Below are positions 57,239 to 61,964 of a stretch of 64,000 nt of DNA, piece by piece (position 1 is the first letter of the stretch; each line of letters begins with the position of its first letter). The translations under genes were made by a program, and so were the position numbers. The notes under the pieces were generated by a model, which was given only the letters and a program-made list of their open reading frames with translations, searched no databases and was not told the origin of the DNA. This stretch comes from Amoebidium appalachense. Its lineage: Eukaryota; Protista; Ichthyosporea. Location of the stretch: the NCBI GenBank assembly GCA_963693365.1, contig CAVNZM010000002.1:8405059-8469058 (forward strand), given 5' to 3'.

Positions 57239-60200
57239 ATGTTTGGAAACTCTTTTATCCAAGCACCGTTAAACTTGAGTGTTGGAAACACTTTTCCTTA
57301 CACTAGCATTCCCTCCCTCAAGTCGGCCAGTTTAGCCATGCTCCAGCAAACAATAGCCAACGGCTCAAGCCTGCTTATAACGAATACACCATACATGAGA
57401 AACATGACTGGGAGCCCAAGCAGAGCACGAGAAAGAAAAAGGAACAGACGTTTGTTAGAGCAGGAAACTATTACAGTATCAGATTCGGAGGCAGAGGAAA
57501 ATGTGGAGGGGGAGGAAGAAGACTCGGAAATTTTCAACATAACTACGGAGGAGTTGGATATGGACCACCCCGAATACAAGTAGGTGCTAACGAACAGCAT
57601 GTGTTTTAATGTGAATGTTTGTTCTTTTGAAGTGCTAGTGTAGTATGGCGAAGAATTTGGTGATTTCTTTAACTTTTTGTCTGTGTGAGGGGTGTGTGTG
57701 TGTGTGGTGTGTGTGTGTGTGTGTGTGTGTGTGTGTGTGTGTGTGTGTGTGTGTGTGTGTGTGTGTGTGTGTGTGTGTGTGTGTGTGTGTGTGTGCAAGT
57801 CACTGTGTATGTGTGCCGTGTGTGTGTGTGTCTATGGTTGTGTGTATAATGTGTGTGTCTGTGCCTGTGTGTGTGTGTGTGTGTGTGTGTGAGTGTGTGA
57901 GTGTGTGTGCCGTGTGTGTGTGTGTGTGCCTGTGTGTGTGTGTCTCATCAAGGTGTGTGTGTATGTGTATGGTTGTGTATATGTGTTTGTGTGTGTGTGT
58001 GTGTCCACGTGTGTGTGCTTGTGCGCTTGTGTGTGTGCGCGCGCGCGTGTGTGTGCGCGTTTGTTTGCATGTGCGTGTTTGTGCTTTTGAGTGTGTATGT
58101 GCGCATGCTCGTGTGAGCGTGTACGTGTCCCTTTTTATGTGTTTCTGGGCATCCCCCCCCCCCCCCCCCCCCCCCCCCACCCACCCACCCCACCCTATCC
58201 CCCCGCCCCTCTCTCTCTCTCCCTCCCCCCCCCCCCCCCCCCCCCCCCCCCCCACCCCACCATCACCACCAACACCACCACCACCTGTGCTCACAAAATA
58301 TTCGCTCACTCAGGTGTTCAATTCATTTCAAGCACGCTCAATTACTAGAGGTGTAAAAAAAATACACAAGAATGCCGGGTAGAAACCGTGGGTTCTGTCT
58401 TTTGTCGCTCCCTTCTGTCAAACCATGCTTTAAAAACAAAAATTGGGTCTCTAAACGAAGATTTTGGAACCTTATCACTAACCGCACTTCGTTTTCCTTC
58501 GCAGGTGGGTGAGAGAGAAATTCCTTGAGGGAGCAAAACGAGATTTGGACGTGGCAGATGAGTCGCCCTCTTTGGACCCAGAAACGGGTGCCCTCTATAC
58601 GCTCGTTCAAGTTTTTAAGGTCACCAACGAGAAGAGGGAAGAAGAATTTCGTATGGAGGCGCGCTACATGAAGATGTTTGCACGCATGCGGGGTGAGAAG
58701 TTCGATGAACAGACACACGTCAACACACAGAGTCTATTCCACGGGTGCAAGCGGTCGGCCACCGCCGTCGCAATGGACCCCGGTAGGTGCATTGCTTGAA
58801 ACCCCCCCCCCCTCCCCTTCCCCCCGCCAGACACCCACACACACACACACACACACACACACACACACACACACACACACACTCACTCACACACATCTCC
58901 CCCCTCCCTCCCTCCCCCCCCCCCCCCCCCCCCAAAAAAAAAAAAAGAAAAAAGAAAAAAAAAACTAAAAACTCACCCCCCAACCCAAACCTAAACCTAA
59001 ACCCCCCTTCTCTCTCTCCCCTTTTCACCTTCACGCCATACAGACTCCTCCCCCCCCCCCCCCCCCCCCGCCCTCCATCGCATTCACCGCCCTCCTCCCC
59101 CCTTTTTATATTGCCCAAGGAAGAAAGAAAGGAACAATAACAGTAATTTAAATGCGGACCTAGATGGGTTGCCTACATGTTGCACTTTTTGGGTAATTCT
59201 TAAAGGTGGAAACCTGTAGTGGTAAGTGGAAAACAATAGGCAGTGATTCGGAAGACACAAATTCCCAAGAATAGCAACGGGCAAGCGAAGATAAGGTTAA
59301 CTCGGAAAGGTTTTGAAAGTAGAAAGATTATGAAGCCTTAAGAAACTCTGAATAGCAGACCATACCTATACGGTTTTTATAAAGCATGAAGTTAAACATG
59401 GAATTAAATCGAAGTCAAGGTGAAGTAAACGGAATCCATCGTTGTGAAGCCAGTGCCTAAGATGAGCAATATGTTTTCTTTAAAACTGTTGCTAAAGCTT
59501 GCAAGCATCACTGCAAGACTTGAGCAAACTTAAATTACTGATGATTCTGAGAGCTGCCTGCCGCTAACTAAACATTCCACCCGTTTCCCCCTCTAACACC
59601 ACAATCTGTCCAAAAAACGAACACACGCTGCCTGGCCACTTGCACCTACACTCGCACAACAAGCTTCGAGAACGTGGAAACACACACGCACAAATACGTG
59701 CACGCACACACACACGCAAACATGCGCGCGCACACGCGCGCGAACACACACACACACACACACACACACACACACACACACACACACACACACACACACA
59801 CACACAAACGTATGACAAAAACACCCAACATGCGACACACGAACAAACACACACACACACACACAGAGGGCCTAGATGAACGTTATTCCAGCCCAGACGG
59901 ATTCTTTGGCCGTGGCATCTACCTTAGTCCGTCTGTGCGTAAGTCCGACATGTATGCACGCAGCAGAGAGGATGGTCTTAAGGAGATGCTGCTCTGCGAC
60001 GTGCACCTGGGCAGAGTCATAAGGTACCCCTACCCCCCCCCCCCCCCCCCCCCCCCCCCCCCCCCCCCCCCGCCGCCCCTCCTCTCCCCACCTGCTCAAC
60101 TTGCACTCCCCTCCCCCACATCTAGCACATTTGAGTCCAGCTAGTCTATTACCTTCCTCTCTGCCTGTATGCTCAAAGGACTGTCTAACCTCAAGCCGCA

Positions 60201-61964
60201 CTATTATGGTCACTGTCCCCGGTCAGATCACCCCCCTCCCCTCCCCCCTCCCCTTCTCCCTCCCCCCTCCTCCTCCCCCTCCCCTCCCCTCCCCCCCCGG
60301 CCCCCGCCCTTAAAAATCTACCAATACCACCACTCGAAACTCCCACACGGGCGCGCTGAACACACACTGTGCACACACACACACAAAAAAAATAAAAAAA
60401 TAAAAAAAAATAAAGAAAAGCATCCACCACAAAGGCAGTACGAAACAATCGATCCGTTCAGGTCATGCATTTTGCTATGGTCCAATATCCCCTGCCCATC
60501 CCCATCTCCCCCCCCCCCCCCCCCCCCCCCCCTCCCCCCTCCCCTAAATATATCCCACATTATAACTACACCCAAATTCCTGCTGGCTCACCTTACCCAA
60601 CTTCCAATTCACCGACTCACCCCCCCCCCCCCCCCCCCCCTCCCTCCCTCCCTCCCTTCCCCTTCCCTCGCTTCCTCTTCCTCTTCCCCACCCCCTGTAC
60701 ATTTGTTCAGTGCTCATCCAAGCACGTACACACATACACAAACACATACATACACATCCCTCTCACCATGCGGGCACACACGCCTTCCCCTCCTATACAT
60801 GGGCCCATGCACATATGCCAACACACACCCACTCTTGTTTCAATGCGCACCTGCAAGCACAAGGACACACACACACACACCTCTACACATACACGTGCAC
60901 CAACACACACACACACACACACACACACACACACACACACACACACACACACACACACACACACACACACACACACACACACACACACACACACCACACA
61001 CACACACACACACACACACACACTAGTCATTCACTCTGCAACAACCCTCCCCCCCCCCCCCCCCCCACACACACACACACACATACACAGATACGCGACA
61101 GGACAGTATGATAAAAACCTGGTTCGTGAGCCGGAAGGGTACGACAGCGTGTGGGGCAACATGATCCTCCGCGGCAACCAGAAGCCCATGGAAGAACGGA
61201 TCATATATAACCGCCGCAGGTGCATCATTAGGTACATTGCCTTGTACAAACCCGTGCCCCCTCCAATCACACGCACGGTATACGCCCAGACACATCACAG
61301 CCAATCAGTTCTCAGGACGGTGGATGTGTCTGTTTTGGATATCACCCGCCCAGTCAACGCAGGAAAGGACCATCCGTGCCGAAGGGAGAACTGCGCGATC
61401 TGTCAGGATCGGCTGGCGTGCGATCCCGATTACAGCCAATCGGTCGTGCAGCTTCTCCACTGCGACCACTATTTCCATGTCGGGTGCGTGGAAGGAGCCA
61501 GAACACCCAGCGGCGTGAAATGCCCCATTTGCCGCAAAATTTCAGGCCTGCTGACTGGCAACCAACCGGACGGGGATATGACCGTCTTCCTCACCAACAT
61601 CGACTGCCCTGGATATCCCGGGACAGGGTCCTTTCAGATAGTCTACAAATTTCCGGCGGGGGTCCAAGGACTCGCGCATCCCAACCCGGGGAAGCCCTAC
61701 GCAGGGGAGACTCGGACGGCGTATTTTCCTGCGACGGCCGAATTTAAGTGTGTGGTGGATCGGCTGGTGGTTGCTTTTCTCCAGGGTATGCTGTTTACGA
61801 TTGGCCGATCTCTGACTAGGGGGGTCGATGGTGTAATTACGTGGGGCGGTGTCCACCACAAAACTAGCCTTAAAGATGGTGCAATATACGGGTACCCCGA
61901 TGCCACCTATTTAGCAAGGGTTACGGGTGAGCTGGCAGATATTCTGGGCCCTGCTGTAGCGTAG
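57239..61964 (+). CDS. PARP (ARTD) catalytic domain fused to Deltex RING-H2 + DTC E3 ubiquitin ligase, about 549 aa
   Basis: 4 phase-consistent GT-AG exons: 57239-57579, 58505-58782, 59867-60023, 61091-61964. PARP motifs: [55 protein letters not shown]2: [79 protein letters not shown]. Confidence 0.92.

Follow-up and report, generated by a model that had tools for sequence, protein, structure and literature searches.

Can an enzyme that writes ADP-ribose and a ligase that ubiquitylates it share one polypeptide? To our knowledge, the ADP-ribose-ubiquitin hybrid mark has come to light almost exclusively in human cells, in which one protein writes ADP-ribose, another ubiquitylates it, and the physiological substrates have been difficult to identify. 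Were a single chain to do both in nature, this would show selection for the coupling outside vertebrates and would offer a simple setting in which to ask whether chains stay shorter when they are capped in cis; such a protein could also be used as a reagent to produce the mark. The question is raised by a gene at positions 57239 to 61964 of a 64,000-nucleotide stretch of Amoebidium appalachense DNA (assembly GCA_963693365.1, contig CAVNZM010000002.1, positions 8,405,059 to 8,469,058; the whole stretch is called the window), for which a preliminary description made from the sequence alone had proposed a fusion of a PARP catalytic domain, a RING finger and a Deltex C-terminal domain (DTC). Domain searches and a contig from a sequencing run uphold this fusion, and its product is predicted to be an ADP-ribose writer and an ADP-ribose ubiquitin ligase in one chain. 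The parts and their chemistry are already known; the surprise lies in their combination and in its recurrence.

PARP, RING and Deltex domains in one spliced gene

The window is intron-rich eukaryotic DNA crowded with simple repeats, in which four exons with GT..AG introns join into 1,650 nucleotides encoding 549 residues and a stop codon, with no internal stops (Table 1). Three runs of one sample were found, none recorded as RNA, and one of them (X1) contained the stretch; no contig of runs X2 and X3 was placed on the window. The splicing evidence comes from this one run of one study, its type being only guessed as RNA. Contig 2 of run X1 (1,313 nucleotides) was placed on 57207-57579, 58505-58782, 59875-60020 and 61098-61595. 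Only the exon 1-2 joint (57579 to 58505) was listed outright by the tool used, the other two joints adjoining repeats, and the 8 and 10 unplaced contig letters between the remaining pieces are the missing exon edges. Exon parts of 373, 278, 157 and 505 nucleotides sum exactly to the contig, which comprises exons 1-3 and the first 505 bases of exon 4, giving cover to residue 427, 14 residues into the DTC. Because the pieces and the edge letters add up to 1,313, a spliced molecule joins the PARP exons to the RING finger and the first 14 DTC residues, bearing out the four-exon transcript that had been proposed. The rest of the DTC is a continuous open frame within exon 4, and unique intron sequence had no cover by run X1 contigs. 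An in-frame stop precedes exon 1 at 57203-57205. Separately, an ATG-led stretch at 56472-56499 that ends at GT could splice in frame to the AG at 57204-57205, adding about 20 N-terminal residues; no contig supports this upstream start, and part of the would-be intron is covered by a contig.

Pfam searches with single exons recognised the PARP domain in exon 2 (E 0.048) and exon 3 (E 4.4e-6) and missed its tail in exon 4, and a three-sequence PARP profile fell short of Glu294, so a larger one was built. A search of viral sequences for a short PARP motif gave 121 loci, of which 94 carry it within an open frame, 78 of these together with the His motif. The 78-sequence profile matched residues 169-309 at its positions 35-189 of 193. 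After ten sequences were dropped, 68 PARP1-like domains were kept (five of five checked match Pfam PARP), and their profile scored the spliced protein at 41.7 bits, against a best of 4.8 when its PARP region was shuffled 500 times. Taken alone, the first 60 residues of exon 4 reached 15.6 bits against a best of 3.1 in 500 shuffles, and because they outscore all shuffles the profile places the end of the PARP fold in exon 4, beside the RING finger and the DTC. A splicing artefact as the source of the fusion is ruled out by the four-exon contig and by this content of exon 4.

The His193-Tyr225-Glu294 (H-Y-E) triad is intact as described earlier: His193 and Tyr225 are identical in 68/68 references, both having been selected for when the set was gathered, and Lys232, Ser233 and Tyr236 (68/68) and Glu294 (67/68, with top posterior) match without having been selected for. 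This reference set is redundant, and its counts describe column identity and not independent conservation. A complete catalytic domain with an H-Y-E triad, the latter serving as a criterion in the part of PMC4245714 that treats the PARP (ARTD) family, is therefore present. The domain is divergent, being 24-33% identical to its best references, and carries Arg after Glu294 where the references have Tyr, Phe or Ile. Its suggested likeness to tankyrase holds only locally in exon 3, for which PARP4 is the better match (E 0.006 versus 0.046-0.57 for the tankyrases). Tankyrases are defined by ankyrin repeat clusters and a SAM domain before the catalytic domain (in the relevant passages of PMC9688111), and membership was rejected, as only 113 domain-free residues without ankyrin clusters or SAM precede the PARP exons. 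No ankyrin, SAM, WGR or PARP regulatory domain was matched by Pfam in the exons; the latter two, which belong to the PARP1 clade and were seen in reference loci, are absent from exons 1-2. Exon 2 and the head of exon 4 gave no useful PDB matches, and MAFFT and hhalign alignments of exon pieces were misaligned or not significant.

Exon 4 matched the Pfam RING (E 5.9e-6) and DTC (E 8e-41, profile positions 1-130 of 133) families, so that, together with the profile for the PARP tail, the domain search recovers all three domains. The RING finger is followed directly by the DTC at the C-terminus, as is characteristic of the Deltex family. All eight RING ligands are present and of the H2 type, and Arg407 holds the linchpin position, where Arg was found in 23/225 fetched proteins by a crude pattern count. 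The expected residues of the NAD+ (nicotinamide adenine dinucleotide)/ADP-ribose pocket are kept, since His514 and Glu539 align to DTX2 His582 and Glu608 in the 6y22 alignment (25 apart versus 26, with a one-residue gap; the DTX2 numbering was matched via the spacing of 26), both of which DTX2 needs according to the passages of PMC7615817 on this pair. An AlphaFold2 model of exon 4 alone (35 sequences; mean predicted local distance difference test (pLDDT) score 75.7, residues 1-56 below 50) gave Foldseek E values <0.001 only to Deltex structures (9/78 matches), and its DTC superposed on that of DTX3L (3pg6) with a root-mean-square deviation of 1.5-1.7 Å. No exon matched WWE, which marks the DTX1/2/4 subgroup, or the KH-like, RRM and macro domains of the DTX3/DTX3L subgroup. 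By its domain matches, the protein belongs to both the PARP and the Deltex families and to no described subgroup of the latter or the former.

Table 1. Features of the PARP-RING-DTC gene in the window, with the giant-virus RING-DTC genes found elsewhere
Feature	Position	Strand	Basis or remark
Exon 1, coding part (residues 1-113)	57239..57579	+	No domain recognised; Glu/Ser-rich, basic patch; contig 2 of run X1 covers from 57207
Basic patch (residues 66-71), which we take from its pattern to be nuclear-localisation-signal-like	57434..57451	+	Sequence
Intron 1, GT..AG, 925 nucleotides	57580..58504	+	Joint listed in run X1
Exon 2, start of PARP domain; His193 at 58740-58742	58505..58782	+	Pfam, contig, 68-domain profile
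Intron 2, GT..AG	58783..59866	+	Sequence; contig arithmetic
Exon 3, PARP core; Tyr225 (59920-59922), Lys232-Ser233, Tyr236	59867..60023	+	Pfam PARP E 4.4e-6
Intron 3, GT..AG	60024..61090	+	Sequence; contig arithmetic
Exon 4, whole	61091..61964	+	PARP tail, linker, RING, DTC, stop
Exon 4, first part, end of PARP fold; Glu294 at 61194-61196	61091..61241	+	Glu at this column in 67/68 reference domains
PARP-RING linker, ~50 residues; second half modelled as beta strands	61242..61391	+	Structure model
RING-H2 finger; C360 C363 C383 H385 H388 C391 C403 C406; Arg407 in linchpin position	61392..61535	+	Pfam, sequence
DTC; His514 (61854-61856), Glu539 (61929-61931)	61554..61940	+	Pfam E 8e-41; 6y22 alignment; Foldseek
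Stop codon	61962..61964	+	
Probable 3' untranslated region	62035..62286	+	Separate contig of run X1, unjoined to the coding contig
Giant-virus RING-DTC genes	L083:1-1401; L217:3-986; L221:6714-8117		Long basic Ser-Pro-rich N-termini

No second PARP domain or DTC was seen within the window. Its neighbouring exons include a weak MFS transporter match at 63608-64000 (-), a WD40 exon at 1116-1757 (+), weak leucine-rich repeat matches at 27554-27895 (+) and a 262-codon frame without Pfam match at 43035-43820 (-).

Occurrence of PARP-Deltex pairings

Two word-based searches with exon 4 yielded 118 and 106 matches, mostly vertebrate, of which two in 224 (P0024 and P0219) have PARP among their precomputed families; P0225, with the order PARP-RING-DTC-cyclophilin, was added through a look-up of clusters. 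When 228 fetched Deltex proteins were scanned with the profiles, a PARP domain was found in these three only. They are unnamed ENA records with PARP domains that resemble one another and have, by register, Ile where the window protein has Glu294; direct comparison of their PARP domains with that of the window protein was not significant. A RING-DTC tree built from 34 rows out of 240 placed P0024, P0219 and P0120 (of the same cluster as P0225) together with animal WWE Deltex proteins in a clade supported at 99/99, and left the window protein outside it on a long branch of unsettled position. The window protein was united with P0024 and P0219 in 0/200 bootstrap trees, and the approximately unbiased test did not reject that union (p 0.099); P0225/P0120 is its best BLAST match among the 240 (45%). 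The two fusions, with PARP domains of different types, probably arose separately. A side result is a RING-DTC family with a C-terminal cyclophilin (P0225, P0120, P0130 and P0188), whose longest member also has the PARP domain.

The exon 3 query returned nothing in the protein set, genomes or plasmids, its sole viral match being rejected as chance, and the exon 4 query nothing in phages. In the ESM Atlas, exon 4 led to Deltex clusters only, none listing PARP, and residues 270-740 of P0024 had no usable match; P0219 folded alone gave no usable model (pLDDT 29.9). No title or abstract among the papers listed by full-text searches describes a PARP-RING-DTC protein, a scope that leaves aside supplements and subscription papers, in which this architecture could appear. 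The word 'deltex' is absent from the main texts of the PARP surveys PMC2964712 and PMC4245714, of PMC6500376 and of a preprint on fungal PARPs (10.64898/2026.07.25.740670), as are 'PARP domain', 'fused' and 'protist' from the main text of a 2026 Deltex review (PMC13658767). As sampled by word-based searches in which vertebrates dominate, the architecture is rare, recurrent and apparently undescribed, and, given P0024, P0219 and P0225, not unique.

The pairing was also sought in metagenomes and viruses. Of 395 metagenome DTC loci, the best 80 contained no fused PARP. At one of them (L029:3583-6555), a WWE-RING-DTC gene is immediately preceded, on the same strand, by a PARP gene closest to PARP10/14/15; the 71-kb contig is AT-rich, gene-dense and intronless, also carries Hsp70, ABC transporter, patatin and vWA-RING genes, and is possibly giant-virus-like. 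Of 19 pattern matches in the viral collection, three were RING-DTC genes, each of them on a giant-virus bin (Table 1), and both of the two searchable bins encode a PARP elsewhere, one of which (L226) has a similar basic N-terminus; a bin with a RING match only had no PARP. A weak PARP-profile match in L217 was rejected, as it falls in an ATG9 gene. That gene (L217:7162-8781) gives a giant-virus bin a full-length copy of an autophagy gene (Pfam E 4e-103). Many viral contigs (L086-L205) contain compact genes for PARP1-like H-Y-E proteins of ~400-440 residues, a WGR domain being present in some of these, and DTCs in L033, L058, L068, L023 and L034 were fused to a 3'-5' exonuclease, a protein kinase or a TAZ finger, or doubled around one RING.

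A predicted write-and-cap enzyme and its alternatives

We propose, with a probability of roughly 0.58, that this one protein ADP-ribosylates a bound partner or its own chain and then, acting in cis, adds ubiquitin to the ADP-ribose so attached, in keeping with the writer-ligase reading first advanced for it, which its residues and domains support. By analogy with human enzymes, the H-Y-E domain would move ADP-ribose from NAD+, the DTC would bind the new ADP-ribose and activate its 3' hydroxyl through the His514-Glu539 pair, and the RING finger would bring E2~ubiquitin, leaving an ester-linked ADP-ribose-ubiquitin mark. The RING-DTC chemistry is that set out in the pertinent parts of PMC7615817; Deltex ligases are further described, in passages of PMC12407064, as ubiquitylating mono-ADP-ribose on tankyrase and preventing chain formation, and, in passages of PMC11219154, as targeting the terminal unit of ADP-ribose chains. 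In human tankyrase, chains cease to grow once ubiquitin sits on the first or terminal ADP-ribose; in this fusion, a polymerase-type active site would accordingly write short marks that end in a cap. Where other Deltex proteins have WWE, macro or KH domains, this one has its PARP domain, so the substrate would be made by the ligase itself instead of being found; the acidic N-terminal region may, at a guess, be a site of self-modification. In favour of such coupling, PARP and Deltex recur together as a fusion (P0024, P0219 and P0225), as neighbours (L029) and in shared giant-virus bins.

Several observations weigh on the other side. PARP is lacking from 225/228 fetched Deltex proteins and from the vicinity of 79/80 metagenome DTC loci (many of them short), DTC occurred in 0/121 viral PARP-motif loci (flank up to 2.5 kb), and the two giant-virus bins share gene order and are not independent. 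No close orthologue that would speak for selection on the PARP and RING-DTC pair was found, the best RING-DTC identity being ~45%. The structure model covers exon 4 alone, whereas action in cis would need both active sites to reach one substrate, and Pfam found no targeting or regulatory domain in the exons. The Arg linchpin would, judging from passages on human Deltex, favour ordinary lysine ubiquitylation more than in the human proteins.

This last point also bears on the alternative that survives best, though we consider it unlikely: both halves could be active on different substrates, the PARP domain on proteins and the RING-DTC on free NAD+ or ADP-ribose, single-stranded nucleic acid ends or lysines, with the fusion serving co-regulation only. 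The human RING-DTC needs no PARP to act on NAD+ and free ADP-ribose (as stated in parts of PMC7615817 and PMC12687431), and DTC is fused to many unrelated domains (kinase, exonuclease, TAZ, cyclophilin), so that fusion alone is weak evidence of coupling. Yet the adjacent PARP domain would make precisely what the DTC is known to act on, and the same pairing recurs both as a fusion and as neighbouring genes. Less probable still is a PARP domain that is inactive or nearly so and acts as an NAD+ sensor or ligase scaffold, as PARP9 does for DTX3L in the account of that complex in PMC12687431; the divergence of the domain and the Arg after its catalytic Glu would fit this, but the triad and Lys232-Ser233-x-x-Tyr236 persist at columns aligned with high confidence, and a dead domain would be likely to have lost them. 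That the fusion is a lineage-specific exon-shuffling accident or a decaying gene without selected function is very improbable, as the missing orthologue and the modest contig depth in one run are set against a clean frame across four exons, a spliced contig and the integrity of every catalytic and zinc-binding residue.

Coming back to coupling in cis, a broader view is offered tentatively, and we would sooner bet against it: PARP plus Deltex may be a self-contained write-and-cap unit built several times by eukaryotes and their giant viruses, either long before the vertebrate PARP14-PARP9-DTX3L complex or independently of it. The window gene would be the minimal form of this unit, with a polymerase-type site whose product is capped by its own ligase, and would encode a single enzyme making the hybrid mark. 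Nothing was found in this analysis that points to the antiviral or DNA-damage role once suggested.

Comparison with known systems

P0024, P0219 and P0225 have the same domain order as the window protein, from which they differ in lacking Glu at the third position of the triad, in a RING-DTC that clusters with those of animal WWE Deltex proteins, and in additional parts, either bromodomain-like (a weak match, E 0.011) or cyclophilin. Other PARP fusions with ubiquitin machinery have been published, namely the fungal PARP-Ubc, a PARP6-like domain with an E2 domain, and the Dictyostelium U-box-macro-PARP (PMC2964712, PMC4245714, 10.64898/2026.07.25.740670); in place of an E2-like or U-box domain, the window protein has a DTC, which targets ADP-ribose itself.

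With human Deltex (DTX1, DTX2, DTX4; DTX3, DTX3L) it shares the C-terminal RING-DTC, the DTC fold and the His-Glu pair, and with DTX1/2 the RING-H2 type, whereas a PARP catalytic domain replaces their WWE, KH, RRM or macro domains and the linchpin is Arg, where human proteins have Lys, Gln or Gly. Tankyrase acting with DTX2/DTX3 offers a precedent for an H-Y-E PARP with Deltex-capped ADP-ribose, and exon 3 is locally alike; the window protein, however, is without the ankyrin repeats, the SAM domain and tankyrase's ~14-residue longer loop after the second motif. In tankyrase this loop is the zinc site.

The parallel drawn earlier with PARP9-DTX3L is loose, since in the vertebrate complex PARP14 is the writer and PARP9 is without assigned activity in the passages of PMC12687431 and of a preprint (10.64898/2026.04.23.720386) that treat them. 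The window protein lacks the macro, KH and RRM domains of that complex, nothing speaks for interferon-like control, and it has an H-Y-E domain where the complex has a mono-type writer and an inactive PARP. What the two have in common is an ADP-ribose writer and an ADP-ribose ubiquitin ligase held together, in vertebrates by three proteins and in the window gene by one predicted chain.

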